A program made the translations under genes and the position numbers. A stretch of DNA of 64,000 nucleotides. Source: an uncultured Phycisphaeraceae bacterium (lineage in GTDB: Bacteria; Planctomycetota; Phycisphaerae; Phycisphaerales; UBA1924). Location: contig CAYHQQ010000011.1 of NCBI GenBank assembly GCA_964358855.1, positions 11,546 to 75,545 of the forward strand, given 5' to 3'. Positions 12,887-29,499 of the stretch are shown here, in pieces; position 1 is the first letter of the stretch; each line of letters starts with the position of its first letter. The notes beneath the pieces are model-generated. The model was not told the DNA's origin and made no database searches. It saw only the letters and a program-made list of their open reading frames with translations.

Positions 12887-13252
12887 TCAGTCGCGGGGAG
12901 CAACGTTTGGATTCTCGCGGAAGTGGGGATCGAGGAGCGTGATGAGGGCGCAGCGGGCCCGGTGCAGCATACGGGCGACTTCACCGCGCGGCAGGTCCAG
13001 TTGCTGAGCGAGTTCGTCCTTGCTCATGCCTTGGCCATCGTGCAGCCGGGAGATTGTTTGATACGGGTCGGGCAGACGAGCGATCGCGGCCAGCACGATC
13101 TCGCGGTCGAGCTCGTCGCTCGCCGCGTTGGTGTCTCGCCACGGGCCGTGCGGACGAACGGCACGGCCGCTGGCGTCGAAAGCTGGCAGTAGGTCGTCGA
13201 GTGCATCGCTGGAACAACGCATGGCGGGGACGGTTGACTGCCGGAGGCTCAT
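12887..13252 (-). CDS. sigma-70 region-4-only HTH protein (121 aa)
   Basis: ATG 13252 overlaps the MTA-phosphorylase stop as ATGA. The C-terminal part (REIVLAAIARLPDPYQTISRLHDGQGMSKDELAQQLDLPRGEVARMLHRARCALITLL) matches ECF sigma region 4.2. No region-2-like sequence is visible. Confidence 0.7.
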   Translation of the reverse strand: MSLRQSTVPAMRCSSDALDDLLPAFDASGRAVRPHGPWRDTNAASDELDREIVLAAIARLPDPYQTISRLHDGQGMSKDELAQQLDLPRGEVARMLHRARCALITLLDPHFRENPNVAPRD

Positions 13253-14199
13253 GGGCAGCCTCCGGGGTTCTGAGCCGACAACTCCGGGAAGTATCGCCCC
13301 CAGATCGGACGCAGGCGTTCGACCTCGGCGGCGGGGATCAGGTCCTTCTTGGTCCAAATACCGAGCTTCAAGGCGTCGTGCGCGGGGCTCGGATGATCGC
13401 GGAGCATCGACACATCGCGCAGGGCGGCTTCGATGAGTTGGGCCGCGGCGTCGGCGCTCTTGTGCAGGTTGCCGATGATCTCCGTGAGCAGCGATTCGGG
13501 GGCTTGGCCCGGCCTTGGCTTCCGCTGCTTCCAGCAGTCGTAGTCGGTGGGCAGGGTGATGAGGGCGTAGGCGATCTCTGCCTCGCGGGCCAGGCGGGCC
13601 TCGGGCAGAGCGGTCATGCCGACCACGTCGGCTCCAAACGCCCGGTGCATCTCGCTCTCGGCCCGCGTGGAGAACGCGGGGCCGTCGATGCAGATGTAGG
13701 TGCCGTCGGGATAGACCTCGATGCCCTTCTCGTTTACGCGCGGCGCGGCGGACTGGAGCCAGTCTCGCATCACAGGGCAGCAGGGGTCGGCGAACTCGAT
13801 GTGGACGGCGGCAGAATCAAAGAACGTGCGGTCGGCGCCACGCGCGCCACTCCCGCTGGTGCGATCAATGAGTTGGTCCACCAGCAACACGCCGCCGGGG
13901 CGGATCTCCTCCCGCAGCGAGCCGACCGCGCCGGTGGCGACGATGTGCGTCACGCCGAGAGTCTTGAGGGCGTAGATGTTCGCCCGGTACGGCGCGCGGT
14001 GCGGCGGAATGGTGTGCCCGGTGCCGTGACGCTTGAGGATGGCGAGTTGGATGTCGGTACCCGCGAGCCTTCCGATGGCGATGGGAGCGCTCGGCGGACC
14101 GAACGGGGTTTGGACCTCGACGGCTTCGGGCGATTCGAGCAGCCCGCTCGCCGAGAGCCGGTCTTCCAGGCCGCTGCCTCCGATGATGGCGATCCGCAT
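13249..14199 (-). CDS. mtnP: S-methyl-5'-thioadenosine phosphorylase (MTAP/PNP family)
   Basis: MRIAIIGGSGL...TPFGPPSAPIAIG...ILKRHGTGHTIPPHRAPYRANIYALKTLGVTHIVATGAVGSL is a classic MTAP signature. GGAG lies 6 nt upstream of ATG 14199. Confidence 0.9.
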   Translation of the reverse strand: MRIAIIGGSGLEDRLSASGLLESPEAVEVQTPFGPPSAPIAIGRLAGTDIQLAILKRHGTGHTIPPHRAPYRANIYALKTLGVTHIVATGAVGSLREEIRPGGVLLVDQLIDRTSGSGARGADRTFFDSAAVHIEFADPCCPVMRDWLQSAAPRVNEKGIEVYPDGTYICIDGPAFSTRAESEMHRAFGADVVGMTALPEARLAREAEIAYALITLPTDYDCWKQRKPRPGQAPESLLTEIIGNLHKSADAAAQLIEAALRDVSMLRDHPSPAHDALKLGIWTKKDLIPAAEVERLRPIWGRYFPELSAQNPGGCP

Positions 14200-14299
14200 G
14201 AGAACTCCGTAGGTGAAGGACGAAGACGGGCCGTGGTCGGCGTGTGATCAGGGCCGGGAACCGTACCCGTGCCGCATCCCGCCTTTGAGCCTTGGTTGG

Positions 14300-14337: not shown

Positions 14338-14419
14338 GACCAGCCCGTGCACCCGAACAGCACCGGGATGCACCCGGCCGGAGACGTTTCGGATTACCGC
14401 TACTGGGAGCAGACAACGC

Positions 14420-15670
14420 ATGAGCAACGCGACCTTGAATGGAACGACACACAACAATGGCTCGGCGAAGCCCGCCCCTCATGCTGAGCCCGAGACGCCG
14501 CATGGTGTTGACGCCATCGAGGGCGCGGTGCTCGGCCGCTACGCCGAGGCGTCGAAGGCTCCCGAGGCCGCGTTGTGCTGCCCGACCATCAACTATGACA
14601 AGGCCCTGCTCGCCATGCTGCCGCAGGAGATCATCGAGAAGGACTACGGCTGCGGCGATCCGAGCAAATACGTCGGAGAAGGCGAGACCGTCGTCGATCT
14701 CGGGTCGGGCGGGGGCAAGGTCTGCTACATGATCTCCAAGAAGGTGGGGACACGCGGGGCGGTCCTCGGTGTGGACTTCAACGATCCCATGCTCGCGCTG
14801 GCCCGCAAGTACCAGGGCGAGATGGCGGGCAAGATCGGCTGGGCGAACACATACTTCGTCAAGGCTCGCATCCAAGACATGGGGCTGGACCTTGATGCGC
14901 TGGCCGCGTGGCTGGCGGAGCACCCGGTGACGACGCTCGACGCCGCCGACGCGCTCGAAGCCGAGAAGCGCCGCATCCGCGCCCACGCGCCTGCGGTGCC
15001 CGGCGACTTCGCCGATGTGGTGGTCTCCAACTGCGTGCTCAACCTCGTGGCCACGGACGAGAAGGGAAAACTATTCGACGAGATCTTCCGCGTGCTCAAG
15101 AAGGGCGGGCGGGCGGTCATCAGCGACATCGTGTGCGACGAGACGCCGCCCGAGTCGATGCGGAATGACCCGCACCTGTGGAGCGGGTGCATCTCCGGGG
15201 CCTTCCGCGAGGACGAGTTCCTGGAGCGGTTCGAGAAGGCCGGGTTCCACGGGATCGAAATACTTGAACGTGCCACCGAGCCGTGGCAGGTGGTCAACGG
15301 CATCGAGTTCCGGTCGATGACCGTGCGGGCGTACAAGGGCAAGCAGGGGCCGTGCTTCGAGCACAACCAGGCGGTGGTCTACAAGGGGCCGTGGAAGAAG
15401 GTCGTGGATGACGATGGGCACACGCTGGTCCGCGGCGAGCGGATGGCGGTGAGCGACAAGACGTATCAACTGATGACCGATGCGAAGGGGCCGTACTCCG
15501 GGCAGGTCGTGGGCATCGAGCCGCGCACGCCGATCGCCGCCGAGGAGGCCAAGCCGTTTGCTTGCCAGAAGCAGGCGACCCGCGATCCGCGCCAGACCAA
15601 GGGGCTCGACTACCGCGAGACCATCGCCGCCGATAGCGAGTCTTGCTGCACAGACGGCTCGTGCTGCTGA
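14420..15670 (+). CDS. arsM: arsenite S-adenosylmethionine methyltransferase-like (ArsM family)
   Basis: Conserved Cys contexts ALCCPT and YGCGDP. SAM motif VVDLGSGGG. VVSNCVLNL...FRVLKKGGRAVISDIV. Cys-rich tail CCTDGSCC. Sits two genes upstream of an ArsS-like radical SAM gene. Confidence 0.8.
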   Translation: MSNATLNGTTHNNGSAKPAPHAEPETPHGVDAIEGAVLGRYAEASKAPEAALCCPTINYDKALLAMLPQEIIEKDYGCGDPSKYVGEGETVVDLGSGGGKVCYMISKKVGTRGAVLGVDFNDPMLALARKYQGEMAGKIGWANTYFVKARIQDMGLDLDALAAWLAEHPVTTLDAADALEAEKRRIRAHAPAVPGDFADVVVSNCVLNLVATDEKGKLFDEIFRVLKKGGRAVISDIVCDETPPESMRNDPHLWSGCISGAFREDEFLERFEKAGFHGIEILERATEPWQVVNGIEFRSMTVRAYKGKQGPCFEHNQAVVYKGPWKKVVDDDGHTLVRGERMAVSDKTYQLMTDAKGPYSGQVVGIEPRTPIAAEEAKPFACQKQATRDPRQTKGLDYRETIAADSESCCTDGSCC

Positions 15671-15730: not shown

Positions 15731-16885
15731 ATGGCTGTTGCTCTCATCATCGCGGTGCTCTGGCTGGCCTACAGCAACGGAGCCAACGACAACTTCAAGG
15801 GTGTCGCGACGCTCTACGGCAGCGGTGCGGCCACGTTCAATCGTGCCCGGATGTGGGCGACGTTTGCCACGCTCGCCGGGAGCCTTGTGTCCGTCGTGCT
15901 CGCCGCGACGCTCGCCAAGCAGTTCACGGGAAGCGGGCTGGTGCCCGCGGAACTCGCCAGCAGTTCGGCGTTGCTCGTGTCGGTCGGCGCGGCCGGCGCG
16001 GCGACCGTGCTGCTCGCGACCTTCCTCGGCATGCCGACCTCGACGACGCACGCGCTCACTGGCGCGCTCGTGGGCGTCGCGCTGCTCGTCAACGGCGGTA
16101 CGGTGCCCCTCGCCAAACTGTGGACGAGCTTCTTCATGCCGCTCCTGGTGAGCCCGGTGATAGCGGTAGCGCTCGCAGGAGGGATGTACCTGGTCCTTCG
16201 CCGCCTGCGTCTGGCGATGGGCGTCACCCGCGAGACCTGCGTATGCGTCGGTCCGTCGCGGACGCTGGTTCCCGTGGGCCTCACCGTTGGAGGCTCGGGC
16301 ACCACTTCGTCATCGTTCCACACGGGAGCCGGCCCGAAGGGTCTGAGCGTGACGATTGGCAAGACCTCGCAGTGCGTCGAGCGGTACTCGGGTACGCTCG
16401 TCGGCGTCGATGCCCAGACTGCGGTCACCACCGTCCACTACGCCAGCGCGAGTGCGGTCTGCTTCGCCCGCGCCGTCAACGACACACCCAAGATCGCGGC
16501 GCTGCTCATGGTCGGCGAGGCCATCGCGGGTTGGAAGCTCGCCGTGGTGGCCGCGGCAATGGTCATGGGCGGCCTCATCCAGTCTCGCAAAGTCGCCGAG
16601 ACCATGAGCAAACGCATCACCGCACTCAACCCGGGCCAGGGCCTCACTGGCAACTTCGTCACGGCCCTGCTCGTCATCGGCGCCTCGCGTCTCGGGCTGC
16701 CCGTCTCCACAACGCACGTCTCGGTCGGGTCGATCTTCGGGATCGGCATCGCTGGCGGGAATCCCCAATGGAAGACCGTCGGTCACATCGGCACGGCCTG
16801 GCTCACCACGCTCCCCCTCGGCGGCGTGCTGGGCGCAGGTCTGTACTACCTTCTCACCCACGCCCATCTCGCCTCAGGCCAGTAA
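15731..16885 (+). CDS. PiT-family (PHO4) inorganic phosphate transporter
   Basis: Trimmed to ATG 15731 (GGAG at 15722-15725). SNGANDNFKGVATLYGSG and the C-terminal repeat TTHVSVGSIFGIG are the paired PiT signature motifs. Multi-TM throughout. Confidence 0.85.
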   Translation: MAVALIIAVLWLAYSNGANDNFKGVATLYGSGAATFNRARMWATFATLAGSLVSVVLAATLAKQFTGSGLVPAELASSSALLVSVGAAGAATVLLATFLGMPTSTTHALTGALVGVALLVNGGTVPLAKLWTSFFMPLLVSPVIAVALAGGMYLVLRRLRLAMGVTRETCVCVGPSRTLVPVGLTVGGSGTTSSSFHTGAGPKGLSVTIGKTSQCVERYSGTLVGVDAQTAVTTVHYASASAVCFARAVNDTPKIAALLMVGEAIAGWKLAVVAAAMVMGGLIQSRKVAETMSKRITALNPGQGLTGNFVTALLVIGASRLGLPVSTTHVSVGSIFGIGIAGGNPQWKTVGHIGTAWLTTLPLGGVLGAGLYYLLTHAHLASGQ

Positions 16886-16906
16886 GCACGCTCGGAGTCT
16901 CTCTTT

Positions 16907-17995
16907 ATGCTCGTCCCCACCAACACTTTGTCGCCTGACTCCGCGTGCCGCATGTCCGGTGAGCGCCCCGATTCCGGCACGGTCGGCCTTACCGTCAACG
17001 GTTCGCGCCCGGGGGAGTGGGAGGCAAACGCCTTCGACCGCGCCATCGAGTCCGCGACCGGCTCGCTCCGCGCGGCGGATATTCGCACGTTCCAAGTCAA
17101 CGTGGGCCTCAGGTGCAACCTCGCGTGCCACCACTGCCACGTCGAGAGCGGCCCCAAGCGGACGGAAGAGATGAACTGGGGCACGATGGCGATGGTGCTG
17201 GAGGCGGCACGGCAGGCCCGGGCACACACGATCGATATCACCGGCGGCGCGCCGGAGATGAACCCGCACTTCCGCCGCCTCGTCTCCGCCGCCAAGGCCC
17301 AGGGCCACGAGGTCATCGTCCGCACCAACCTGACCATCGCACTCGAACCCGGCTACGAGGACCTCCCCGAGTTCTTCGCCGCGCAGCGTGTTCACCTGGT
17401 CGCCTCACTCCCGTGCTATCTCGAAGTGAACGTGGACATGCAGCGCGGCCGGCACGTCTACGCCGAGAGCATCGAAGTCATCAAGCGGCTCAACGCGATC
17501 GGCTTCGGGATCGACCCGGCCCTGCCGCTCGACCTGGTCTACAACCCCGGCGGCCCCTCGCTCCCACCGCCGCAGGGCGCGCTCGAAGCCGACTACCGCC
17601 GCGAGCTGGACCGCCAGTTCGGCCTGCGCTTTACGCGGCTCTACACGATCACGAACATGCCCATCGGCCGCTTCCAGCACGACCTGGACCGGAGCGGGAA
17701 GGGGACCGCGTACAGGCAGAAACTCCGCGATGCCTTCAACCTCGCGACCATCGAGCCGCTCATGTGCCGCCACCAGGTCCACGTGAGCCACGACGGCACG
17801 CTGAGCGACTGCGACTTCAACTACGCCCTCAAGCTCCCGGTCAACCTCGACGACCCGGCCTCACCGCGTCACGTGCGCGACCTGCTCAGACCTGGATCGA
17901 TCGAAACCTTTAGCCGTCGCTCGATCGCCACCGGCGAGCACTGCTTCGCCTGCACCGCCGGGTGTGGCTCGTCGTGCGGAGGAGCCCTCGCATGA
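16907..17995 (+). CDS. arsS: radical SAM / Cys-rich-domain protein, ArsS-like (arsenosugar biosynthesis radical SAM family)
   Basis: CNLACHHC is a CX3CX2C radical-SAM cluster motif. The C-terminal CFACTAGCGSSCGG tail matches, from memory, the Cys/Sec-containing tail of the TIGR04167 family. Lies in an arsM neighbourhood. Confidence 0.8.
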   Translation: MLVPTNTLSPDSACRMSGERPDSGTVGLTVNGSRPGEWEANAFDRAIESATGSLRAADIRTFQVNVGLRCNLACHHCHVESGPKRTEEMNWGTMAMVLEAARQARAHTIDITGGAPEMNPHFRRLVSAAKAQGHEVIVRTNLTIALEPGYEDLPEFFAAQRVHLVASLPCYLEVNVDMQRGRHVYAESIEVIKRLNAIGFGIDPALPLDLVYNPGGPSLPPPQGALEADYRRELDRQFGLRFTRLYTITNMPIGRFQHDLDRSGKGTAYRQKLRDAFNLATIEPLMCRHQVHVSHDGTLSDCDFNYALKLPVNLDDPASPRHVRDLLRPGSIETFSRRSIATGEHCFACTAGCGSSCGGALA

Positions 17996-18035
17996 AGTTC
18001 TCGGACAGATCAAAGAGAAGAATTTCTCGTCCACA

Positions 18036-18055
18036 TCTGGACCGATCGTTCCAGA
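18036..18055. promoter_or_regulatory. 20-bp palindrome O1 (TCTGGACCGATCGTTCCAGA), candidate TetR operator
   Basis: 9/10 symmetric pairs. Lies 45 nt upstream of the tetR ATG (18100). 15/20 positions are identical to O2. Confidence 0.45.
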
Positions 18056-18099
18056 CCGGCTATGGTTCTGCCGATCATCGCAATTGGAAGCACCCACCC

Positions 18100-18678
18100 A
18101 TGCCCTGGAAGAAGAACTTCGATGTCGACGTTGCCCGGGACAGGGCCAAGGCCCTGTTCTGGTCCAAGGGGTACGAGGCGACCTCGATGGAGGACCTGCT
18201 GGGCTGCATGGACATCAATCGGGGAAGCTTCTACGCCACGTTTGGCAGCAAGCAGGCGCTGTACCTCGATGTCCTGCAGCGGTATGACCAGCACTACCGC
18301 TGCGGCGTGCTCGACCAACTCAAGGCTGAGTTCACCCCTCGCGAAGCGATTCTGACGCTGTTCGAGGCGGTCCGAAAGGAAGCCGCCGGCGCGAAGGGCA
18401 CGCGGGGGTGTTTTCTCGCCAACGCAACGATGGAGCTCGCCGCCTCTGACAAGTCCGTTGCCAAAATCGTCGGTGTTGCATTCAGCCAGACCGAGGCGTT
18501 CTTCAAAGCCATGATCGAGCATGGCCAGGCCGACGGCACGATCCGCGCCAGCGCAGATCCGGATGTCGTCGCCCGGTCTCTTCTCGGTCTGCTGCTTGGC
18601 ATGCGGGTGTTGGCTCGCGGCGGGTCGCCCGCGCCGGTGCTTGAGTCGATCGTTCAGCAAGTGAAGGAGTTGCTCTAG
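18100..18678 (+). CDS. TetR/AcrR-family transcriptional regulator
   Basis: Trimmed to ATG 18100 (GGAAG upstream). The N-terminal HTH (ARDRAKALFWSKGYEATSMEDLLGCMDINRGSFYATFGSKQALY) is typical TetR_N. Confidence 0.88.
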   Translation: MPWKKNFDVDVARDRAKALFWSKGYEATSMEDLLGCMDINRGSFYATFGSKQALYLDVLQRYDQHYRCGVLDQLKAEFTPREAILTLFEAVRKEAAGAKGTRGCFLANATMELAASDKSVAKIVGVAFSQTEAFFKAMIEHGQADGTIRASADPDVVARSLLGLLLGMRVLARGGSPAPVLESIVQQVKELL

Positions 18679-18770: not shown

Positions 18771-19370
18771 ATGAAGTCCGCTCTCATCAACGTCCCCGTC
18801 CAGACCGTCGAGTCCGCCCCCGCTGCGTCGCGCGACCTGCTCAAGGCCGCCGGGAGCAAGTTCGGCTTCGTCCCCAACCTGCTGGGCATGTTCGCCAATG
18901 CCCCGGCCCTGCTCGAGGGATACCTCACACTCGCCGGGATCTTTGATAAGACCTCGCTCTCGCCGACGGAGCGTCAGGTGGTCCTGCTCGCCGCCAGCTT
19001 CGAGAACGGCTGTGAATACTGCATGGCGGCACACAGCGCCATCGCGGGCATGCAGAAGGTCGACCAAGGCGTCATCGGCGCCCTGCGGGACGGTAATCCG
19101 ATCAGCGACGCGAAGCTGGAGGCCCTTCGTTCGTTCGCCGCCGAGGCTGTCCGCACCCGCGGCTGGCCGTCGACTGAGGCCGTGGCGCGGTTCACCGGCG
19201 CGGGGTACACCCCGGCCCAGGCGCTCGAGGTCGTCCTTGGCATTGGCGTGAAGACGCTCTCCAACTACGCCAATCACCTCGCGGCGACGCCGCTCGACAG
19301 CGCGTTCGCACCCGTGAAGTGGTCCAAGCCCGGCTGCGGGTGCGGCACCAGCGCCTGCGGCACGCGCTAA
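18771..19370 (+). CDS. carboxymuconolactone decarboxylase / AhpD-like family protein (second paralog)
   Basis: Trimmed to ATG 18771 (AGGAG 7 nt upstream). ASFENGCEYCMAAHS is a CxxC motif of the AhpD/CMD fold. Confidence 0.8.
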   Translation: MKSALINVPVQTVESAPAASRDLLKAAGSKFGFVPNLLGMFANAPALLEGYLTLAGIFDKTSLSPTERQVVLLAASFENGCEYCMAAHSAIAGMQKVDQGVIGALRDGNPISDAKLEALRSFAAEAVRTRGWPSTEAVARFTGAGYTPAQALEVVLGIGVKTLSNYANHLAATPLDSAFAPVKWSKPGCGCGTSACGTR

Positions 19371-19511: not shown

Positions 19512-19766
19512 ATGCCACTGGTTCAAGTCAAAGGTGTGTCCGGGTATCTGTCCAAGGAACAGAAGGCCGAGTTGATCAAGCGTCTGACGGACGCGGTCCT
19601 TTCGGTCGAGGGCGAGGGCCTCCGCCCCGTCACGTGGGTCATCATCGAGGACGTGCCCGAAGGTCAATGGGGCGTCGGCGGCACGCTCGCCTCCGCCCAG
19701 ATGCTCCGCGAGATGGCCGGCAAGCAGCACTGCGCCACCGGCGCCGCCGCCTGCGCTCGCACCTGA
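19512..19766 (+). CDS. 4-oxalocrotonate tautomerase-family protein
   Basis: Trimmed to ATG 19512 (AAAGGAG upstream). MPLVQVKG...SKEQKAELIKRLTDAV has Pro-1 and the beta-alpha-beta tautomerase pattern. Confidence 0.75.
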   Translation: MPLVQVKGVSGYLSKEQKAELIKRLTDAVLSVEGEGLRPVTWVIIEDVPEGQWGVGGTLASAQMLREMAGKQHCATGAAACART

Positions 19767-20006: not shown

Positions 20007-21041
<1,035 letters not shown>

Positions 21042-21731: not shown

Positions 21732-22511
21732 ATGCCTGTGGAACAGACGTTCTCGAATCGTTCTCTCTTGGTCGTTGGCGGAACAAGCGGGATCGGTCTC
21801 GCTGTCGCACGAGCCGTTCAAGGCTCGGGCGGCACAGTGACGGTGATCGGTTCCAGACCTGAGAAGGCGGCGCGCGCCGCGGTGGATCTCGGGTCCGGTG
21901 GTCGAGCCCAAACGATAGACGTTGCCGCCGAACAGGGTCTCGCCCAACTGCAGGAACTGATTGCGTCCGAGCCGCACCCGTTCGACCTCTTGGTCAATGC
22001 AGCCGGCATCTTCATTCCCAAGCCGTTCGTCGAGCACACCCCGGAGGACTATGACCGATACGCGGCTTTGACACGCGCACAGTTCTTCGTGACGCAGGCC
22101 ATCGCCCGGCGGCTGATCGCCTTCGGCCGCGGTGGTGCGGTGGTCAATATCGGCTCCATGTGGGCGAGGCAAGCGATCGAAGCCACACCTTCGTCGGCGT
22201 ACTCCGTTGCCAAGGCGGGCCTGCATGCGCTCACCCAGCATGCAGCGATGGAACTGGCCAAGCACCGAATACGCGTGAATGCGGTATCGCCGGCGGTTGT
22301 CGAGACGCCGGTGTACGAGGCATTCATCCCGTCCGATCAGGTTCATGCGGCACTGCAGGGATTCAACTCGTTTCACCCGATCGGTCGGATCGGTACCCCC
22401 CGGGACATCGCCAGCGTGGTCGCATTCCTCCTGTCGGATCAGTCGTCATGGGTCACCGGGGCGATTTGGGACGTTGACGGTGGCGTTATGGCTGGCCGCA
22501 ATGTCATTTAG
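21732..22511 (+). CDS. short-chain dehydrogenase/reductase (SDR)
   Basis: Trimmed to ATG 21732 (AAAGGAG upstream). Cofactor motif [11 protein letters not shown] and active-site motif [11 protein letters not shown]. Confidence 0.88.
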
Positions 22512-22585: not shown

Positions 22586-24268
22586 ATGAGCCACTCCGCC
22601 GTCGAAACGCCGCCCGTGAACGCTGATCCCTCGGACTCGCGTGCCCAAGGCACGAACGCTGCGGGCGCGGGTGGCTGGGCACAGAAGGCCGTGCGCCTGC
22701 TCTGCTTTGTCATCATCGCGGCGAGTGCGCTGGTCATCCTGCGTGCCCTGCCGACGGCCCAACTGCTGGACCTAATGCAGAAGAAAGTGGCGACGTTCGG
22801 GCCGTGGGGGCCGGTCGTGTACGGCGTCACGTACTTCGTCGCCGCCGTCCTCTTCGTCCCCGGCTCGGCCCTCACGCTCGCTGCGGGCGCGATCTTCGGG
22901 CTTGCCGGGGGATTCGCCACCGTCTCGGTCTCGTCCACCGCCGCCGCCGGGGCATCGTTCCTCATCGCGCGCTACCTCGCCCGCGACAAGGTGCGCAAGA
23001 TGGCCGAGAGCAACCGCACCTTCGGAGCGATCGACAAGGCCATCGCGCAAGGCGGGTGGAAGATCATCGCGCTCCTGCGGCTCTCGCCCGCCGTGCCCTT
23101 CTCCTTGGGCAACTACCTCTACGGGCTGACGCCGGTGAAGTTCTGGCCGTACCTGCTCGCGTCGTGGGTGGCGATGATGCCCGGTACGTTCCTGTTTGTG
23201 TACCTGGGCTACGTCGGTAAGACAGCCGCAGGTGGTGGCGGCGGCAAGAACCCGTGGCAGTGGGTGCTGCTGGGCGCTGGTCTGCTCGCGACGATCGTGG
23301 TGAGCGTGTACGTGACCCGACTGGCCCGCAAGGCCCTGAAAGAGACGTCTCTGAAAGAGGACAGTGTGAAGCGTGACACGAGCGAGAAGTCCGCACAGGT
23401 CGTCAAGTCCGGTCCCAAGCCCGTGGGCAAGCCGATCGTCGCGGCCGGGGTGCTTGCTGTGCTGGCGGCGTGCGCACAGCTCAACAAGGGGCGCCTCGGC
23501 AGCATGTTCGGTCCGCCCAAGGCGACGCCCCACGAGGCCTACGCGAACGCTCCAGCCGGAGCAACGTTCGATCACTCGGCGTTCGATGCACTCCTGAAGG
23601 CTCATGTGAGCACTGAGGGCGGCTTTGTCGACTACGACGCGCTCAAGAAGGATGCGGACAAGCTCGACGCCTACATCGTCGCGATTGGGAAGGCCGATGT
23701 GGACACGCTCGGTCGCGACGAGCGTCTGGCGTTCCTCATCAACGTCTACAACGCTTTCACGCTCCGGCTGATCCTGGACTATTACCCCGTAGACTCGATC
23801 AAGGACATCCCCTCTGACCAGCGCTGGGACGCAAAGCGGTGGACGATTGCCGGCGGCACCTACAGCCTCAACCAGATCGAGCACGAGCTCATCCGCCCCA
23901 AGTTCGCCGAGCCGCGTGTCCACTTCGCGCTCGTGTGCGCCGCGATCGGGTGCCCGCCCCTCCGCAACGAGGCGTACACGGGGGCACGGCTGGAAGAACA
24001 ACTCGCGGACCAGTCGCGCTACGTGCACTCGCACCCCCGATGGTTCCGGTTGCAAGAGGACCGTGGCGAGGTCGAGCTGACCGCCCTTTACGATTGGTAC
24101 GGCGGCGACTTCACGCAGAAGGCGTCGTCGGTGGTTGCCTTCGCGGCACAGTTTTCGCCTGAACTGGTCCGGCTCATCAACTCGGGCAAGGAGCCCCGCG
24201 TGAAGTTCCTGGACTACAGCTGGAAACTCAACAGCGTTGGGAATCGATCGCTTGCGGGCGACAAGTAG
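22586..24268 (+). CDS. TVP38/TMEM64 (DedA-related) membrane domain fused to a DUF547 domain
   Basis: The N-terminal half (VYGVTYFVAAVLFVPGSALTLAAGAIFG...LLRLSPAVPFSLGNYLYGLT) is TVP38/TMEM64-like. The C-terminal half (NVYNAFTLRLILDYYPVDSIKDI...IEHELIRPKFAEPRVHFALVCAAIGCPPLRNEAY) is DUF547-like. Confidence 0.85.
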   Translation: MSHSAVETPPVNADPSDSRAQGTNAAGAGGWAQKAVRLLCFVIIAASALVILRALPTAQLLDLMQKKVATFGPWGPVVYGVTYFVAAVLFVPGSALTLAAGAIFGLAGGFATVSVSSTAAAGASFLIARYLARDKVRKMAESNRTFGAIDKAIAQGGWKIIALLRLSPAVPFSLGNYLYGLTPVKFWPYLLASWVAMMPGTFLFVYLGYVGKTAAGGGGGKNPWQWVLLGAGLLATIVVSVYVTRLARKALKETSLKEDSVKRDTSEKSAQVVKSGPKPVGKPIVAAGVLAVLAACAQLNKGRLGSMFGPPKATPHEAYANAPAGATFDHSAFDALLKAHVSTEGGFVDYDALKKDADKLDAYIVAIGKADVDTLGRDERLAFLINVYNAFTLRLILDYYPVDSIKDIPSDQRWDAKRWTIAGGTYSLNQIEHELIRPKFAEPRVHFALVCAAIGCPPLRNEAYTGARLEEQLADQSRYVHSHPRWFRLQEDRGEVELTALYDWYGGDFTQKASSVVAFAAQFSPELVRLINSGKEPRVKFLDYSWKLNSVGNRSLAGDK

Positions 24269-24282
24269 GACCAGACCCACAA

Positions 24283-25893
24283 ATGACGACTACTCACAAC
24301 GGGACGATCCACGACGCACTATCGGCACACGCCAAGCGATACAACGGTGACAGCACGATGCAGTCTACATTCGATCCGAGTGTTCTGGCCGATCTCCGGC
24401 CTTTGGACGAACACAACTCACGGCTGCTCGAAGCCGTCCATCCGCCCACCTGGAACAACCCCACGCCCTCAGGCCGCTACAACATGGCGGTGATCGGCGG
24501 CGGCACCGCGGGGCTGGTGACGGCGGCCGGTGCGGCCGGTCTTGGGGCGAAAGTTGCACTCGTTGAGCGGAGGTTTCTGGGGGGCGACTGCCTCAACTTC
24601 GGTTGCGTGCCGAGCAAAGCACTGATCCGCTCGGCACGGTCGGTGGGCGACCTCGTTGAAGCGCACCATTATGGGGTCAGGGCGGGATCGGGCTTCGGTG
24701 TCGATTTCCCGGCGGTGATGGAGCGCATGCGCCGGCTGCGTGCGGAGATAGCACCGCACGACTCCGCCGAGCGGTTCCGTTCGCTCGGGATCGACGTCTT
24801 CATCGGTGACGCCAAGTTCACCGGTTCGGACACCATCGAGGTAGGCGGGCAGACACTGCGTTTCGCCCGAGCGTGCATCGCGACCGGAGCTCGTCCCGCC
24901 ACCCCTGCCATCCCCGGGTTGGCAGAGGCCGGGTTCCTGAACAACGAGAACGTCTTCACACTCACCGAGCTGCCGCCTCGGCTGGCCGTGCTCGGCTCAG
25001 GCCCGATCGGCTGCGAGCTCGCTCAGTGCTTCGCACGCTTCGGATCCACAGTGACCGTCATCGAACAGGCTGGCCAAGTGCTGCCGCGTGAAGACCGCGA
25101 TGCCGCCGAGTTCGTGATCAAGGCGATGGGTCGCGACAATGTGATCTTCAGGCTGAACGCCAGTGTGGAACGGGTCGAACAATCTGCCTCGGGCAAGACG
25201 CTGGTGCTCAAGACCGCTGGGGGCGAGGAACGGTTAGAGGTTGACGAGATCCTGGTGGGTATCGGGCGAGCGCCGAACGTGGAGGGCATGGGGCTGGAAG
25301 CGGCGGGCGTGAAGTTCGACGCACGCAAAGGAGTCGAAGTCACGGATGGACTGCGGACCACCAACCCGCGGATTTATGCGGCGGGCGATGTGTGCAGCAG
25401 GTACAAGTTCACGCACGCCGCGGATGCGATGGCCCGGATCGTGATTCAGAACGCGCTCTTCTTCGGGCGCTCCAAGGCGAGCCGACTGGTCATGCCGTGG
25501 TGCACGTTCACGGACCCAGAGATCGCGCACGTTGGCATGTACGAGAAGGACGCCCAGGAGCAAGGCATCGAGACCGACACCATCGCGGTAGAACTCGGCA
25601 AGGTCGATCGGGCCATTCTCGACGGCGAAGATGGCTTGCTGAAGGTTCTCCTACGCAAAGGCTCAGACGAGATTCTCGGCGCAACCCTCGTGTCCAGGCA
25701 CGCGGGCGAGACGATTTCGGAACTCACCACCGCGATCACCCACGGCGTCGGTCTGCGCAAACTCGCGAGTGTCATCCATCCGTACCCGACACAGGCGGAG
25801 GTCATCAAGCGGGCGGCGGACGCTTACAACCGCACCCGCTTGACGCCCGGTGTCAAGAAACTCTTCGAGCGTGTTCTGGCGTGGAGGCGATGA
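24283..25893 (+). CDS. FAD-dependent pyridine nucleotide-disulfide oxidoreductase (class I; the 'mercuric reductase-like' group without metal-binding extensions)
   Basis: GGGTAGLVTAAGAAGLGAKVALVE...GGDCLNFGCVPSKALI shows the dinucleotide fold and the CxxxxC redox centre. No HMA domain and no C-terminal Cys pair. The start is uncertain (ATG 24283 has no clear SD). Confidence 0.85.
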   Translation: MTTTHNGTIHDALSAHAKRYNGDSTMQSTFDPSVLADLRPLDEHNSRLLEAVHPPTWNNPTPSGRYNMAVIGGGTAGLVTAAGAAGLGAKVALVERRFLGGDCLNFGCVPSKALIRSARSVGDLVEAHHYGVRAGSGFGVDFPAVMERMRRLRAEIAPHDSAERFRSLGIDVFIGDAKFTGSDTIEVGGQTLRFARACIATGARPATPAIPGLAEAGFLNNENVFTLTELPPRLAVLGSGPIGCELAQCFARFGSTVTVIEQAGQVLPREDRDAAEFVIKAMGRDNVIFRLNASVERVEQSASGKTLVLKTAGGEERLEVDEILVGIGRAPNVEGMGLEAAGVKFDARKGVEVTDGLRTTNPRIYAAGDVCSRYKFTHAADAMARIVIQNALFFGRSKASRLVMPWCTFTDPEIAHVGMYEKDAQEQGIETDTIAVELGKVDRAILDGEDGLLKVLLRKGSDEILGATLVSRHAGETISELTTAITHGVGLRKLASVIHPYPTQAEVIKRAADAYNRTRLTPGVKKLFERVLAWRR

Positions 25894-27353
25894 CCGAACG
25901 AGCACTTCAATCACTGCATGACCGTCCTCGCGCAGCGCCGCCCCACAGCGGCTGGCCAGTGGCCTATTGGATTGCCGGTGGCTCGTTCGTGGCGTACGCG
26001 GCCCTCCTCAGTGGCCTCTCCCGAATGCTGGCGTCGGATGGGATCGGGCGGCAGCATGCCCTTGTGTGGCTCGCAGGTGGTGGCGTAGTCGCCGGCTCTC
26101 TTTACCTCTTCGGCCTATATCGTGCACAACGCCGAGGCGTTCAGATTGCGCCAGTCTGGATCGCGGTCGTGGCCGTCCTGGCACGGCTCATCGTCTCGCT
26201 GTCCCCGCCAATGCTTGAATCCGATTATCAGCGGTACCTCTGGGATGGCGCGGTCGCTGCGAACGGTATCAATCCCTACCGATATCCCCCTAGCGACATC
26301 ATCGCGGGTACGGCCCGTGGGCAGGGCGCTGATCGTCTATCTGATCTGGCTCATCGTGCCGGTCCCGTGCTCACGAGCATCAACCATCCGACGCTCACGA
26401 CCATCTACCCGCCAGTCGCTCAGGCCAGCTTCGTGGTCGCCTATGCGATCGCTCCATTCGGCCCCAATGGCCTCCGAATTGTTTTCTGCCTGGCCGACGC
26501 AGTGACGGTGCTGCTCCTTGCCAGATTGCTCAGGGCTCTCGGCCTTCCTGCTGTCAAGATTGCCTGGTTCGCCTGGAATCCACTCCTCCTCCGAGAGGTG
26601 TATTCGTCCCTTCACATGGACATTCTCCTGCTGCCGCTAGTCGTGGCGGCTCTGCTGGCAGCAGTCCGCTCCCGAAGCGGATTAGTCGCGGCGTGCCTTG
26701 TTGTCGCATCAGCGGTGAAGGTCTGGCCCATCGTTCTTGCACCGCTCGTTCTGCGGCCCCTGTTTGGCCAGTGGCGTCGAATGGCGGCGGTGGTTGGTGC
26801 GTGCGGTCTGCTGGGGGCTGTCCTCTGGCTCCCCGTGGTGCTCGCCCCGCACGGCGAGAACAGCGGCTTCTTGGCCTACGGGCGCGCATGGCAGAACAAT
26901 GATGGATTCTTCCGGGCCGGCATCTGGATGACCGAGCGGGTATTGAATCTGGCTCACATCGAGCCTTGGCACTCCCACACGATCATGCGACTGCTGACCG
27001 CGGGGTTGGTCGCAGGGATCGTCCTCTGGCAATCGCGAACGCTGGCAAGTGATGGCACGAGCCTGGTACGCCGGTGCGTCTTCATCGTCGGCGGGATCTT
27101 TCTCCTGAGTCCGACTCAGTTCCCGTGGTACTGGCTCTGGTGTCTTCCGTTCCTCACGCTCCGTCCCAGCCTTCCCTTGCTTGTCTACACCGCGCTGCTG
27201 CCCATCTACTACGTTCAGGACCAGCTTGTGTACCCGCTCGGCCACTGGCTCCAGCACGCTCCTGTGTGGATTCTCCTGCTACTGGCGGGAGGACGAACAG
27301 CGCTGGGGCATCGCACCAGGCTATTTGATGAACGGGAGGTCCGTGTTGCGTAA
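25890..27353 (+). CDS. polytopic GT-C-type membrane glycosyltransferase-like protein (DUF2029 / GT87 / PIG-M-like)
   Basis: ATG 25890 overlaps the reductase stop as ATGA. Roughly 10 or more hydrophobic helices. The loop motif ESDYQRYLWDGAVAANGINPYRY...TTIYPPVAQ resembles the first extracytoplasmic loop of DUF2029/PIG-M-type mannosyltransferases. Family assignment is by eye only. Confidence 0.7.
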   Translation: MTERALQSLHDRPRAAPPHSGWPVAYWIAGGSFVAYAALLSGLSRMLASDGIGRQHALVWLAGGGVVAGSLYLFGLYRAQRRGVQIAPVWIAVVAVLARLIVSLSPPMLESDYQRYLWDGAVAANGINPYRYPPSDIIAGTARGQGADRLSDLAHRAGPVLTSINHPTLTTIYPPVAQASFVVAYAIAPFGPNGLRIVFCLADAVTVLLLARLLRALGLPAVKIAWFAWNPLLLREVYSSLHMDILLLPLVVAALLAAVRSRSGLVAACLVVASAVKVWPIVLAPLVLRPLFGQWRRMAAVVGACGLLGAVLWLPVVLAPHGENSGFLAYGRAWQNNDGFFRAGIWMTERVLNLAHIEPWHSHTIMRLLTAGLVAGIVLWQSRTLASDGTSLVRRCVFIVGGIFLLSPTQFPWYWLWCLPFLTLRPSLPLLVYTALLPIYYVQDQLVYPLGHWLQHAPVWILLLLAGGRTALGHRTRLFDEREVRVA

Positions 27354-29499
27354 CGGCTCCGTGATTGCCGTGGTGATCCCTGCGTTGAACGAGGAGGCCG
27401 CGCTCCCCGGCGTCATTGCACGCATCCCCGAATGGGTTGACCGAATTGTCGTCGTCGATAACGGCTCAACAGACCGGACGGCTGCCGTCGCTCGTGCCGC
27501 GGGCGCCGTGGTGGTCTCGGAACCCACACGCGGCTACGGCCGCGCGTGCCAGGCGGGCATCATCGCGGCCGAGACGGACCCTCAACTGTCGCCGGAACTG
27601 CTGGTATTCCTTGACGCCGACGGCAGCGACTTCCCCGAGCAGATGGAGCGAGTAGTTGATCCGATCATCGGGGGCTGCGCCGACATGGTCATCGGATCCC
27701 GGACACGCGGGGTGCTTAACGCGGGGGCGATGACCGCGCCGCAGCGATTCGGCAATCTAATCGCTCCCGCTCTAATCCGGTGTCTGTGGGGAGAGCGGTA
27801 CACTGACCTCGGCCCGTTCCGCGCGATCCGTGTGTCGGCCCTGCGTTCCCTTCGCATGGACGACAACACCTACGGCTGGACCGTGCAGATGCAGATCCGG
27901 GCCGCCCGGGTTGGCTTGCGAACGCTTGAGGTGCCTGTCGACTACGGCTGTCGCCGAGGCGGCGAGTCCAAAATCTCGGGCACGATTCGCGGCGTTGTAA
28001 AGGCAGGCACAAAGATCCTCGCGTGCGTCGGCCAGGAGTACTTCTGGCCGAAGAAGCTCACCAGCGGCGCACGAGAGGCGCTCGGTGTGTTCGCTAAGTA
28101 CCCCGAGCCCGGAAGAGCCAAGACTCGGCTCATTCCCGCGTTGGGAGCGGCGGGCGCTGCGGGTCTGCACGACAGCATGGTCCGTCACACCCTGGCCCGC
28201 GTGAGCGAGTTGCTCAGCCAGCGCGAAGTGGAGTCCCGCGTCTATTCGGCTGGAACCGACCCCGACACCTTCGCACACCACTTCAAGACCCAGGTTCCGT
28301 GCGTGGCGCAGAGTTCCGGCGACCTCGGGCAGCGGATGCTCGCGGCGTTCCGGCACATGCTGCGGGAAGCGACCGCTGCTGTCATCATCGGGACCGACTG
28401 CCCTGACATCTCACCGGGCCTCCTCGGTATGGCGTTCGAGGCGCTGCGATCCTCGGATGTGGTCCTCGGCCCGGCCAGCGACGGCGGATACTACCTCATT
28501 GGTCTGAGGCGCCCCGTCCCGGCACTCTTCGAGAACATGGAGTGGAGCACTGCGACGGTGCTGGCCAAGACGCTTGAACTGGCGTCGTCGCTCGGGCTCT
28601 CGGTCCGGCTCCTGCCCACGCTCAACGACATCGATGAACCACCCGACCTGCCGGTGTGGGATCGTGTCCGTGCCACGTTTGCACCGACCGGTGAGATGCC
28701 ATCACTCTCGGTCATCATTCCCACCCTCAATGAGCAGGGTCGAATCGGCAACCTCGTTGACACGGTTCGCCATCCCGGCGTTGAGGTCATTGTCGCCGAC
28801 GGCGGGAGCGACGACAACACACGCAGCGTCGCGGCTGCACACGGCGCTCGCGTGATCATCGCTTCCCGCGGGCGAGGCCCCCAACTCAACGCCGGCGCTG
28901 CGCTCGCGAGAGGGCAGAACCTGCTGTTCCTGCACGCAGACACCACACTCCCCGAGAACTTCGGTGACATCGTGCGGCGGACGCTCAGCGACTCGTCCGT
29001 GGCGGTCGGGGCCTTCCGCTTCAAACTCGATCGTGCGGGCGTTCTCCTGCGCGTCGTTGAAATCGCCGTGCAGGTCCGCTGCGGCGTCTTCAAGACACCC
29101 TACGGCGATCAGGCGTTGTTCATGAGGCGCGATGTGTTCACACGGCTCATGGGGTTCGCGGCAATCCCGCTGATGGAAGACCTCGACCTCGTCCGCCGTG
29201 CCCGGATGACAGGCCGCGTCACGGTGGTGGACGCACCGGCCATCACCTCCGCCAGGCGATGGGAAGTCGTCGGCGTAATGCGTATGACCGCCATCAACCA
29301 GGCGTGCGTCATCGGTTTTTCGATGGGAATGTCGCCGCAGAGGCTGGCCACGTGGCGAAACCGCCTGTCTGGGAAGAAGCCCGTGCGGGCGAGCGTCCCA
29401 ATTCCGTGCGCCGGTCAGATCGTGCCCGAAGGTTCCTTGGCTCCAAACGCTGCCCGAGCCATCTGCATGGCTTCTTCGGACTTGGACGTAAGGAAGTAG
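27328..29499 (+). CDS. three-domain fusion: GT2 (DPM1-like) + DUF2064/TIGR04282-like + GT2 (TIGR04283-like), 723 aa
   Basis: ATG 27328 is in-frame and overlaps the upstream gene by 26 nt. Domain 1 (about 27328-28070): VIAVVIPALNEEAALPGVI...VVVDNGSTDRT...FLDADGSD. Domain 2 (about 28075-28690): LGVFAKYPEPGRAKTRL...IGTDCPD...DGGYYLIGL. Domain 3 (about 28700-29370): SVIIPTLNEQ...VADGGSDDNT...FLHADT...YGDQALF...RRW. Confidence 0.85.
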   Translation: MNGRSVLRNGSVIAVVIPALNEEAALPGVIARIPEWVDRIVVVDNGSTDRTAAVARAAGAVVVSEPTRGYGRACQAGIIAAETDPQLSPELLVFLDADGSDFPEQMERVVDPIIGGCADMVIGSRTRGVLNAGAMTAPQRFGNLIAPALIRCLWGERYTDLGPFRAIRVSALRSLRMDDNTYGWTVQMQIRAARVGLRTLEVPVDYGCRRGGESKISGTIRGVVKAGTKILACVGQEYFWPKKLTSGAREALGVFAKYPEPGRAKTRLIPALGAAGAAGLHDSMVRHTLARVSELLSQREVESRVYSAGTDPDTFAHHFKTQVPCVAQSSGDLGQRMLAAFRHMLREATAAVIIGTDCPDISPGLLGMAFEALRSSDVVLGPASDGGYYLIGLRRPVPALFENMEWSTATVLAKTLELASSLGLSVRLLPTLNDIDEPPDLPVWDRVRATFAPTGEMPSLSVIIPTLNEQGRIGNLVDTVRHPGVEVIVADGGSDDNTRSVAAAHGARVIIASRGRGPQLNAGAALARGQNLLFLHADTTLPENFGDIVRRTLSDSSVAVGAFRFKLDRAGVLLRVVEIAVQVRCGVFKTPYGDQALFMRRDVFTRLMGFAAIPLMEDLDLVRRARMTGRVTVVDAPAITSARRWEVVGVMRMTAINQACVIGFSMGMSPQRLATWRNRLSGKKPVRASVPIPCAGQIVPEGSLAPNAARAICMASSDLDVRK

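Follow-up and report, generated by a model that had tools for sequence, protein, structure and literature searches.

We analysed a window of 64,000 nucleotides (64 kb) from an uncultured Phycisphaeraceae bacterium (assembly GCA_964358855.1, contig CAYHQQ010000011.1, positions 11,546 to 75,545, forward strand), focusing on a locus around the gene for ArsS, an enzyme of the radical S-adenosylmethionine (SAM) type. The ArsS protein was identical to the GenBank entry 'MAG: arsenosugar biosynthesis radical SAM (seleno)protein ArsS [Planctomycetota bacterium]' (MAG, metagenome-assembled genome). Its contigs derive from metagenomes of Hainich groundwater, with Phycisphaerae MAGs as the nearest relatives. 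The region has a G+C content of 62-68%. The gene map was based on a listing of open reading frames (ORFs), the gene calls of the public source and hidden Markov model (HMM) scans. From arsM through the glycosyltransferase (GT) fusion, 13 genes lie in a row on the same strand. The genes named in an initial annotation made from the DNA letters (PiT, TetR, VTT-DUF547, FAD reductase, GT-C and the GT fusion) were recovered at or near the coordinates assigned to them there. The genes are as follows, block 1 running from MTAP to ArsS, the cassette from TetR to SDR, and block 2 from VTT-DUF547 to the GT fusion.

13249..14199, minus strand: MTAP-family phosphorylase, divergent from arsM (PF01048, 141.5 bits)
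14420..15670, plus strand: ArsM-like methyltransferase with a Cys-rich C-terminal tail (best model NF040538)
15731..16885, plus strand: PiT transporter for inorganic phosphate or anion (PF01384, 187.5 bits)
16907..17995, plus strand: ArsS radical SAM enzyme (TIGR04167, PF04055, PF12345)
17992..18678, plus strand: TetR regulator, first gene of the cassette, its start overlapping the ArsS stop (PF00440, PF16925)
18771..19370, plus strand: AhpD-like (CMD) protein, cassette (PF02627 in the gene call of the source)
19512..19766, plus strand: 4-OT-family tautomerase, cassette (PF01361, 50.5 bits)
20007..21041, plus strand: alpha/beta hydrolase, cassette (PF00561, 132.2 bits)
21154..21642, plus strand: DUF1348/SnoaL-like protein, cassette (PF07080, 218 bits)
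21738..22511, plus strand: short-chain dehydrogenase/reductase (SDR), cassette (PF13561, 162.7 bits)
22586..24268, plus strand: VTT/TVP38 domain, transmembrane (TM) anchor and DUF547 (PF09335, 88.9 bits; PF04784, 94.9 bits)
24283..25893, plus strand: class I FAD/NAD(P)H disulfide oxidoreductase, here called FAD reductase (NF004991, 796.6 bits, cutoff 620)
25890..27353, plus strand: GT-C membrane glycosyltransferase, GT87/MptA_B-like (PF09594, 28.8 bits, cutoff 25)
27328..29499, plus strand: GT2-TIGR04282-TIGR04283 triple fusion, start also possible at 27181 and placed by PGAP at 27346 (TIGR04282, TIGR04283, PF00535, PF09837, PF12804)

ArsS scored 407.5 bits against TIGR04167 (cutoff 300), covering model positions 2-303 of 303, and 155.9 bits against PF12345 (DUF3641). 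Its CX3CX2C cluster motif was read in the sequence as C70/C74/C77 within RCNLACHHC, and its C-terminus carries the Cys-rich tail CFACTAGCGSSCGG in the all-Cys form. The protein is 44% identical to ArsS of the cyanobacterium Pseudanabaena (L095; compared loci are cited by such numbers). By analogy with the cyanobacterial enzymes, the only ones for which the activity is known, this putative ArsS would adenosylate trivalent dimethylarsenic, DMAs(III), to dimethylarsinoyl-adenosine (DDMAA). An ArsL identity of the radical SAM enzyme was rejected: no ArsL-named model appeared among the 25 of 34 NCBIfam matches listed, and ArsS was ahead by about 370 bits. The proposal of an arsenosugar-type ArsM/ArsS locus in a non-cyanobacterial genome held, and the predicted motifs (CNLACHHC, the Cys-rich tail and YGDQ..RRW) were all present.

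The ArsM-like call for the methyltransferase stood in part. The protein keeps all four catalytic cysteines and a class I methyltransferase fold: C78, C205 and C257 align to C72, C174 and C224 of CmArsM (4FR0), and a CC pair at 53/54 matches C44. Its cysteines are spaced 24/127/52, exactly as in BgArsM with its reported cysteines at 30, 54, 181 and 233. The best model was that of arsinothricin-type ArsM (NF040538, 301.7 bits, cutoff 500); the model of cyanobacterial arsenosugar ArsM (NF038099) gave 118 bits (cutoff 400) and PRK11873 gave 165.7 bits (cutoff 263), and the score lies below every NCBIfam ArsM cutoff. The methyltransferase is therefore an ArsM-superfamily enzyme built like BgArsM, outside the cyanobacterial arsenosugar ArsM model.

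The MTAP-like phosphorylase scored 254 bits against TIGR01694, slightly under the cutoff of 274.85, 269.9 bits against PRK07432 (cutoff 453) and a weak 19 bits against HpnG. Its nearest solved structure was 4GLF, and archaeal and human MTAP also matched. The motifs RH, FS, MT and DYD were read as KRHGTGH, GPAFSTRAES, GMTALPE and TDYDCW. Following human MTAP, we take the R-H, F-S, M-T and D-x-D residues to be phosphate-binding, ribose-binding and adenine-specifying, and the motifs for phosphate, ribose and adenine choice are intact. A comparison of the 5'-substituent pocket with that of human MTAP gave no reliable alignment in the C-terminal region. The fourth member of block 1, PiT, belongs to a transporter type that is a known entry route for arsenate.

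The first protein of block 2 combines VTT (PF09335 cutoff 33.9) with DUF547. JGI names the VTT homologues YdjX (TVP38/TMEM64), from which we infer that the VTT domain belongs to the COG0398-type DedA proteins. These have been proposed to be scramblase-like, and their commonest fusion partner is an oxidoreductase like the FAD reductase of block 2 (PMC10127716). A role of VTT as an undecaprenyl-phosphate flippase was downgraded to a lipid scramblase-like one, as COG0398 DedA proteins are argued to be without the required residues. DUF547 bears a CAAIGC motif and follows a K/R-rich linker and then a TM helix, a charge pattern which suggests that DUF547 faces the periplasm. The AlphaFold model of VTT-DUF547 had a pLDDT of 77.7, with the DUF547 part mostly above 88. 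Searched with Foldseek, this model had no counterpart in the PDB at E<=0.001, and an ArsC-like or thioredoxin-like nature of DUF547 was unsupported.

The FAD reductase carries the redox motif CLNFGC and scored 381.8 bits against TIGR02053 (MerA; cutoff 454.45), with both the C-terminal Cys pair and the NmerA domain absent. With that cutoff not reached and the Cys pair missing, a MerA identity was rejected in favour of NF004991 membership. The protein is 54% identical to the product of a gene in the cyanobacterial locus L095. The label 'mercuric reductase' that PGAP puts on NF004991 proteins pairing with TVP38, also in L095 and on MEK6703860.1, is probably a systematic mis-annotation.

Homologues of the GT-C protein carry PF26314, and its AlphaFold model reached a pLDDT of 91.7 and a pTM of 0.90. 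Foldseek matched the model to ALG6, GPI-MT-I, PimE and ALG3 (probability 1.0, TM-scores 0.43-0.63, E-values 4e-3 to 0.28); D112 and D119 are invariant in 62 homologues and are candidates for the conserved acidic residue of the first extracytoplasmic loop. The modelled fold, together with Pfam GT87/MptA_B, places the protein in the GT-C class, and its likeness to enzymes that draw on polyprenyl-phosphate sugars for lipid-linked acceptors points to a donor of this kind.

The triple fusion scored 206.2 bits against TIGR04282 (cutoff 134), 272.9 bits against TIGR04283 (cutoff 182) and 160.6 bits against TIGR04182. The membership and the NCBI family names given in the initial annotation were borne out, and ArsS, TIGR04282 and TIGR04283 all lie above their curated cutoffs. 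The N-terminal GT2 domain resembles AglJ, DPM synthase, GpgS and ArnC, and the TIGR04283 domain contains the YGDQ and RRW motifs; its match to 9OMH, a generic GT-A fucosyltransferase (WrtF), was discarded as uninformative. The MobA-like DUF2064 domain gave weak but significant matches to CofC (40 bits) and NTP_transf_3 (33 bits, above cutoff), has 3CGX as its closest structure, and shows the invariant motifs KTRLIP, GDLGxRM, DCP and DGGY. The same triple fusion occurs in L006, L007 and L090. The naming of TIGR04282 and TIGR04283 as 'arsenosugar biosynthesis glycosyltransferase' is founded on co-occurrence only.

Gene co-occurrence around ArsS was surveyed in two directions, and the comparison took in about 190 related loci overall. 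In the forward scan, one genome per GTDB species was used; an ArsS relative was found in at least 593 genomes, and the best 80 loci were taken, of which 40 with at least 8 kb on both sides formed the full-flank set. In the reverse scan, metagenomes were anchored on the TIGR04282 domain, led by an Acinetobacter sequence; 23 of the loci found had flanks of at least 6 kb on each side. Both samples are the best-scoring 80 loci with many contigs cut off, and the fractions are indicative rather than genome-wide frequencies. The best 80 ArsS loci span Planctomycetota, Acidobacteriota, Hydrogenedentota, Poribacteria, Desulfuromonadales, Nitrospirales, Gammaproteobacteria, Fibrobacterales, Synergistota and two lineages of archaea. 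In 28 of the 40 full-flank loci, one or more block-2 genes lay within 10 kb. By gene, the counts in this set were 23/40 for TIGR04282, 20/40 for the FAD reductase, 19/40 for TIGR04283, 17/40 for ArsM (at least 45% identity), 14/40 each for VTT and DUF547, 11/40 for the DPM-like GT2, 10/40 for PiT, 8/40 for GT-C and 4/40 for MTAP. Among the 23 TIGR04282-anchored loci, ArsS was present in 21, TIGR04283 in 22, VTT in 17, the FAD reductase in 15 and MTAP in 9. An ArsM homologue (at least 45% identity) adjoins ArsS in 33 of 83 loci, and PiT stands directly upstream of ArsS in 15 of the 83, also in Cupriavidus and Acinetobacter. MTAP is linked to ArsS in L004, L006, L009, L010, L012, L013, L045, L090, L093, L094 and L096, forms compact MTAP-ArsS-TIGR04283-TIGR04282 operons in L112, L120, L128 and L129, and recurs in at least six unrelated arrangements. 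In dozens of species, ArsS thus has the same genes around it, which is far beyond chance, and its association with block-2 genes holds from both directions.

We read the locus as the form that a widespread and horizontally shuffled cluster around ArsS takes in Planctomycetota (Phycisphaerae type). Specific to the planctomycetal type are the pair of GT-C and DPM-like GT2, the triple fusion and the VTT-DUF547 fusion, with the cassette found in this sublineage. In L006, whose ArsS is 79% identical, the cluster is gapless: MTAP on the minus strand is followed by ArsM, PiT, ArsS, VTT-DUF547, FAD reductase, GT-C and the fusion, and then by anti-sigma and sigma genes on the minus strand. Contiguous, colinear blocks were also found in L015, L023, L024, L037, L044 and the Hydrogenedentota MAG L034, confirming that both blocks are conserved together in relatives.

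An unbiased clustering of all ORFs from 86 loci added DUF3179 (14 loci), an ECF sigma factor (12), an ABC ATPase (10) and a fatty-acid hydroxylase/sterol desaturase (9), the last of which recurs near ArsS and forms a link to lipids. DUF3179 often lies directly beside ArsS (L016, L020, L028, L048, L050, L051 and L068 among the loci) and is its only conserved partner in three Poribacteria loci. The list of candidates in the initial annotation was therefore incomplete, since the window contains such a gene, a possible accessory member of the cluster outside the interval first described:

8111..10081, minus strand: DUF3179-AhpC/TSA (redoxin) fusion (PF11376, 211.9 bits; PF00578, 75.1 bits)

In the variant L007/L008 (8855-18981), a Porin_O_P phosphate-selective porin, PiT, ArsS, a fatty-acid hydroxylase, VTT-DUF547, the FAD reductase, a Rce1-like protease and the fusion lie together; ArsM, MTAP and GT-C are not nearby. 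This variant strengthens the link to phosphate/arsenate uptake and lipids.

The distance between ArsS and VTT was measured as 4.59 kb, in agreement with the 4.6 kb noted before, and holds six genes from TetR to SDR (17992-22511). The complete six-gene cassette occurs in L090, with an extra gene for a low-molecular-weight protein tyrosine phosphatase (LMW-PTPase) of the ArsC family, and a shorter form in L010. TetR was seen in L010 and L090 only, and the tautomerase near ArsS in L010, L090 and L034 only; the hydrolase, DUF1348 and SDR (at least 45% identity) and TetR were found in 0 of the 40 full-flank ArsS loci. The locus had been described as split into two blocks; the gap reads instead as a derived, lineage-specific insertion at the ArsS/VTT junction, shared with its closest relatives L090 and L010, and the cassette as lying outside the core pathway. 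The insertion is judged from comparison alone, because neither flanking direct or inverted repeats nor a clear GC shift was found around the 4.6-kb cassette. The junction looks like a hot spot for accessory genes.

For the AhpD-like protein, L034 (61%) and the Acinetobacter plasmid (L096, 38%) have homologues close to ArsS. It contains a CxxC site (CEYC) and a Cys-rich tail, and the NCBIfam model NF041537 indicates by its name that ArsM-AhpD fusion proteins exist; the AhpD-like protein is possibly a thiol reductant for ArsM. Of the candidates for later steps put forward initially, MTAP, DUF2064, GT2, GT-C and the flavoprotein recur with ArsS, and the AhpD-like protein shows some wider recurrence. 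As the cassette is lineage-specific, its SDR, hydrolase and tautomerase are weak candidates, the tautomerase in spite of a little recurrence; with 0 of 40 full-flank loci, SDR, hydrolase, DUF1348 and TetR were dropped from the conserved set. The candidates should be re-centred on MTAP, TIGR04282, TIGR04283, VTT, the FAD reductase, DUF547 and PiT, to which the N-terminal GT2 and GT-C, the AhpD-like protein and DUF3179 can be added.

Nucleotide identity to the sister locus L090 was 86.7% over block 1 and the cassette (13201-22506), compared to 72.5% over block 2 (22546-30992). The cassette proteins are 92-98% identical to those of L090, and the flanking core genes 65-85%. The break in identity sits exactly at the extra LMW-PTPase (ArsC-family) gene of L090. 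This pattern suggests that the left half was recently recombined or exchanged.

Related clusters were found in cultured bacteria. In PLSDB, 54 plasmids carry an annotated ArsS, and 49 of these belong to Burkholderia. On Acinetobacter portensis pJNE5-X3_NDM-1 (L096), the genes for CMD, sigma-70, CcdA, thioredoxin, a peroxiredoxin-like protein, YiiX and ArsS are accompanied by those for a TVP38-FAD oxidoreductase fusion, DUF547, TIGR04283, TIGR04282, a methyltransferase, PiT, mtnP (MTAP) and a sterol desaturase. On Cupriavidus sp. KK10 p1 (L094), PiT-ArsM-ArsS-FAD reductase-VTT-TIGR04283-TIGR04282-MTAP lie on one strand, with DUF547 further along, and Burkholderia thailandensis p2002721643 (L093) has an MTAP-TIGR04283-TIGR04282 operon near arsS and DUF547. 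Because pJNE5-X3_NDM-1 and p2002721643 are accessory plasmids, their MTAP is presumably an extra, dedicated copy. In the cyanobacterium Pseudanabaena galeata (L095), ArsR, TVP38, a 'mercuric reductase', arsM, TVP38 and arsS occur together. The accessory genes had been called non-canonical, which is contradicted by VTT and the FAD reductase in L095 and by the full set on the plasmids L094 and L096. A literature search for experimental studies of the proteobacterial plasmid ArsS clusters found none.

The L096 cluster (137070-146127 of the record) lies on a mobilizable plasmid that encodes the NDM-1 carbapenemase and comes from a dairy environment, so the full cluster travels on clinically relevant plasmids. 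L093 and L096 carry CcdA with a thioredoxin-family protein (reducing power to the periplasm) and a YiiX/N1pC-P60 cysteine hydrolase, and the Burkholderia cluster has a second radical SAM gene beside DUF547. A thiol-redox theme is common to all versions of the cluster.

Compared with these plasmids, the locus shares with L096 and L094 the set of ArsS, VTT, FAD reductase, DUF547, TIGR04283, TIGR04282, MTAP, PiT and methyltransferase, and with L093 only the subset of ArsS, TIGR04282, TIGR04283, MTAP and DUF547. Gene order differs from the proteobacterial plasmids (including that of B. glumae). Those plasmids join VTT to the FAD reductase, while the present locus joins it to DUF547, and they have separate glycosyltransferases in place of the triple fusion. 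They are without GT-C and the DPM-like GT2, and have CcdA, thioredoxin and the YiiX hydrolase in addition. Like the cyanobacterial arsM-arsS operon of Synechocystis sp. PCC 6803 (Xue et al. 2019; for ArsS biochemistry, Cheng et al. 2021), the locus has a SAM methyltransferase and a TIGR04167 enzyme close together on one strand, the latter with the CX3CX2C motif, DUF3641 and a Cys-rich tail, and as in Pseudanabaena (L095) a VTT/TVP38 gene and a MerA-like FAD reductase accompany arsM-arsS. It differs from the cyanobacterial operon in its Planctomycetota MAG host, the BgArsM-like ArsM, the position of PiT between arsM and arsS and the absence of ArsR, and it has MTAP, DUF547, GT-C and the GT2-TIGR04282-TIGR04283 fusion in addition.

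Likeness extends to three systems of other function. In the HpnH/HpnG system (adenosylhopane to ribosylhopane) and the MqnE/MTAN system (aminofutalosine), a substrate first receives the entire 5'-deoxyadenosyl group from a radical SAM enzyme, and an enzyme of the PNP/MTAN superfamily then takes adenine off, so that a ribosyl derivative is left; by analogy, an MTAP-type phosphorylase would take the latter part here, with arsenic instead of carbon as the acceptor. The arsinothricin cluster arsQML of Burkholderia gladioli likewise pairs a C-As-forming radical SAM enzyme with an ArsM partner and shares the BgArsM architecture, but ArsL transfers a 3-amino-3-carboxypropyl group and ArsS a 5'-deoxyadenosyl group, the ArsQ permease is absent here, and NF040538 is below cutoff. 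The DPM1/AglJ/ArnC-like GT2 next to GT-C recalls Ppm1/PimE, DPM1/ALG3/GPI-MT-I and ArnC/ArnT, and the GT2 and GT-C genes are adjacent and overlapping in Tautonia and L092; unlike in such pairs of polyprenyl-phosphate-sugar synthase and GT-C, the GT2 here is without a TM anchor of its own and is fused to TIGR04282/3.

In the literature on homologues, ArsM produces DMAs(III) by methylating As(III), the arsM and arsS genes are transcribed together and required for arsenosugars, and ArsS joins DMAs(III) to the 5'-deoxyadenosyl radical of SAM to give DDMAA in a redox-neutral reaction (PMC13598754). The classical scheme presumes that DDMAA is then 'glycosidated' to give ribosides, and the arsenolipids it describes are dimethylarsenoriboside phospholipids (PMC4632732). 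We consider it probable that the ArsS-centred cluster builds 5-deoxy-5-arsinoyl-ribosides of the arsenosugar type in the steps below, with a product that is probably lipid-linked. PiT would take up arsenate. Supplying or keeping trivalent arsenic and regenerating the ArsM cysteines would fall to a thiol-redox component, which may be the FAD reductase, the AhpD-like protein or an ArsC from another part of the genome, and redoxins could be a further source of reducing power for arsenic or the ArsM disulfide cascade; an ArsC-type LMW-PTPase gene lies inside the sister cluster L090. ArsM and ArsS would produce DDMAA. The MTAP-like enzyme would then phosphorolyse DDMAA, taking adenine off to leave 5-deoxy-5-dimethylarsinoyl-alpha-D-ribose-1-phosphate, as the equivalent of HpnG after HpnH or MTAN after MqnE. 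DUF2064/TIGR04282, MobA/CofC-like and with its KTRL motif, would couple this sugar-1-phosphate to a nucleoside monophosphate, giving a nucleoside diphosphate-arsenoribose, and the inverting GT2 of TIGR04283 would transfer this arsenoribosyl group to an acceptor, either a lipid or of glycerol type, as a beta-riboside. The beta-riboside is the natural configuration of arsenosugars and fits the inverting stereochemistry of GT2. In the planctomycetal version, the DPM1-like GT2 would load sugar on polyprenyl phosphate, the PimE/ALG6-like GT-C would use this polyprenyl donor on the outward side of the membrane to extend or attach the lipid-linked product, and the scramblase-like VTT would move a lipid intermediate across the membrane, assisted by periplasmic DUF547. 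We infer the core order of MTAP, TIGR04282 and TIGR04283 from the two-way co-occurrence and from chemical logic.

Several observations weigh against this pathway. MTAP could merely clear 5'-deoxyadenosine, and its score lies below the TIGR01694 cutoff; ArsM adjoins in just 2 of the 23 TIGR04282-anchored loci; and the DUF547 fold is left without a structural lead. COG0398 DedA proteins have been argued not to be polyprenyl-phosphate flippases, as the required residues are absent (PMC10127716). The literature on TIGR04282/3, DUF2064, DUF547 and post-ArsS steps yielded annotation-level mentions only and no functional paper, and the arsenic gene table of a Modicisalibacter paper has both glycosyltransferases and does not include ArsS. 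E. coli with arsM and arsS alone reportedly showed products of the arsenosugar pathway (Xue et al. 2019), and host enzymes may therefore complete the later steps. In a rival explanation, only ArsM, PiT and ArsS handle arsenic, for detoxification or in a side pathway, housekeeping enzymes finish the riboside, and block 2 is an independent module for envelope glycolipids or lipid homeostasis. The cultured planctomycete Tautonia sociabilis (L089, GCA_003977685.1) speaks for it with VTT-DUF547, FAD reductase, a TIGR04283-like GT2, a DPM-like GT2 and GT-C and no ArsS within 10 kb of these genes, as do the Syntrophobacterales MAG L092, in which the DUF547/GT-C/GT2 trio stands alone with no ArsS within 10 kb, the general association of COG0398 DedA proteins with the oxidoreductase, and the cyanobacterial locus L095, where TIGR04282 and TIGR04283 are absent within 9 kb even though cyanobacteria make arsenosugars. 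Against it stand block-2 genes within 10 kb of ArsS in 28 of 40 loci from many phyla, the presence of ArsS in 21 of 23 TIGR04282-anchored loci, and a set that is kept while its order is shuffled in Cupriavidus, Acinetobacter, Burkholderia, Hydrogenedentota and archaea; even in L095, VTT and the FAD reductase lie between or beside arsM and arsS. We regard an independent block 2 as unlikely.

A different order of reactions was also weighed, in which ArsS adenosylates As(III) or trivalent methylarsenic (MAs(III)) first and the BgArsM-like enzyme methylates the adenosyl- or ribosyl-arsenical, as BgArsM does hydroxyarsinothricin, so that the product is not the classical dimethylarsinoyl riboside. 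The model scores of the methyltransferase (arsinothricin ArsM 301.7 bits, arsenosugar ArsM 118), its BgArsM cysteine spacing and the scarcity of adjacent ArsM (2 of 23 ArsS/TIGR04282/3 loci) are in line with such an order, which we nevertheless think quite improbable, as all four cysteines needed to methylate inorganic As(III) are present and characterised ArsS uses DMAs(III). It is very improbable that the true substrate is another soft metalloid or chalcogen (Sb, Se or Te) and that the 'arsenosugar' names have been over-propagated. In favour of this reading, ArsR, ArsC and Acr3 are absent from the window, all characterised ArsS proteins are cyanobacterial with this one 44% identical to a cyanobacterial ArsS, and the original definition of the family was that of a Cys-rich (seleno)protein radical SAM family; against this stand an adjacent ArsM with arsenic-binding cysteines in 33 of 83 loci, the ArsC-type LMW-PTPase inside L090, ArsR and arsM beside arsS in L095, and PiT, which is generally known as an arsenate entry route.

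Going beyond the arsenosugar-type pathway favoured above, non-photosynthetic Planctomycetota, Proteobacteria, Hydrogenedentota and Poribacteria might purposely take up arsenate through PiT and build arsenic into a membrane or envelope glycolipid by an undescribed Leloir-type pathway, with DUF2064 as the first arsenosugar nucleotidyltransferase and, in Planctomycetota, GT2/GT-C and VTT displaying or extending the lipid outside. We hold this extension to be doubtful. If true, arsenic would be a building block, beyond a poison to detoxify.

Among the major arsenic species of aquatic food webs are arsenosugars and their phospholipids. ArsM and ArsS are the only known biosynthetic enzymes, and the step from DDMAA to the riboside and the making of arsenolipids have been without an assigned enzyme for decades. 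For these steps, the locus and its relatives give a short list of an MTAP paralogue, DUF2064/TIGR04282 and TIGR04283, followed by VTT, the FAD reductase and DUF547, in a proposed order that makes chemical sense and from which the natural beta-configuration is expected. Outside cyanobacteria the cluster is common, with at least 593 GTDB species genomes, and its presence on plasmids of cultured Acinetobacter, Cupriavidus and Burkholderia makes experiments feasible now. Read together with its relatives, the locus makes the later steps of arsenosugar and arsenolipid formation directly testable, in cultured strains included. If the pathway is true, functions could be given to several DUFs, the 'mercuric reductase' annotations would be put right, and the picture of which microbes make complex organoarsenicals in groundwater and soil would shift.

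The arsenosugar label is already public for two genes of this MAG, which removes part of the novelty implied initially: PGAP names both ArsS and the fusion ('TIGR04283 family arsenosugar biosynthesis glycosyltransferase') accordingly. Its other names are 'MTAP family purine nucleoside phosphorylase', 'methyltransferase domain-containing protein' and 'inorganic phosphate transporter' in block 1, and 'TVP38/TMEM64 family protein', 'mercuric reductase' and 'glycosyltransferase 87 family protein' in block 2; ArsM is unrecognised and the flavoprotein mislabelled. In line with the reported absence of arsR, arsB/acr3 and arsC, about 50 ORFs from all over the window were scanned with Pfam and included no ArsR, ArsC, Acr3 or ArsB.

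Downstream of the fusion lies a pair of possible local regulators, which is also kept in L006 and L090 and was called from NF052375 (33.3 bits), Sigma70_r2 and r4_2:

29415..30368, minus strand: anti-sigma factor
30365..30970, minus strand: extracytoplasmic function (ECF) sigma factor (Sigma70_r2 and r4_2)

A role of the anti-sigma factor as a zinc/thiol (ZAS) arsenite sensor was dropped, as the HxxxCxxC motif is absent. No sigma-70-like promoters were found in the window, and terminator-like sites were fewer than the shuffled expectation. In the Rfam scan of the 64-kb window, the sole match was a tRNA gene at 6229-6302 on the plus strand. A 1685-aa ORF at 974-6031 (plus strand) has a strong coding signal (GC3 0.89) and is Pfam-blank at E<=1e-6, as are the ORFs at 51499-53400 (633 aa) and 42402-43649 (415 aa). 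At 59019-61343 (plus strand), a 774-aa protein ends in a Peptidase_S74 domain (intramolecular chaperone of endosialidases and tail fibres) and may be encoded by a phage-derived or surface-fibre gene; it is followed by a WbsX-type glycosyltransferase at 61852-63066.

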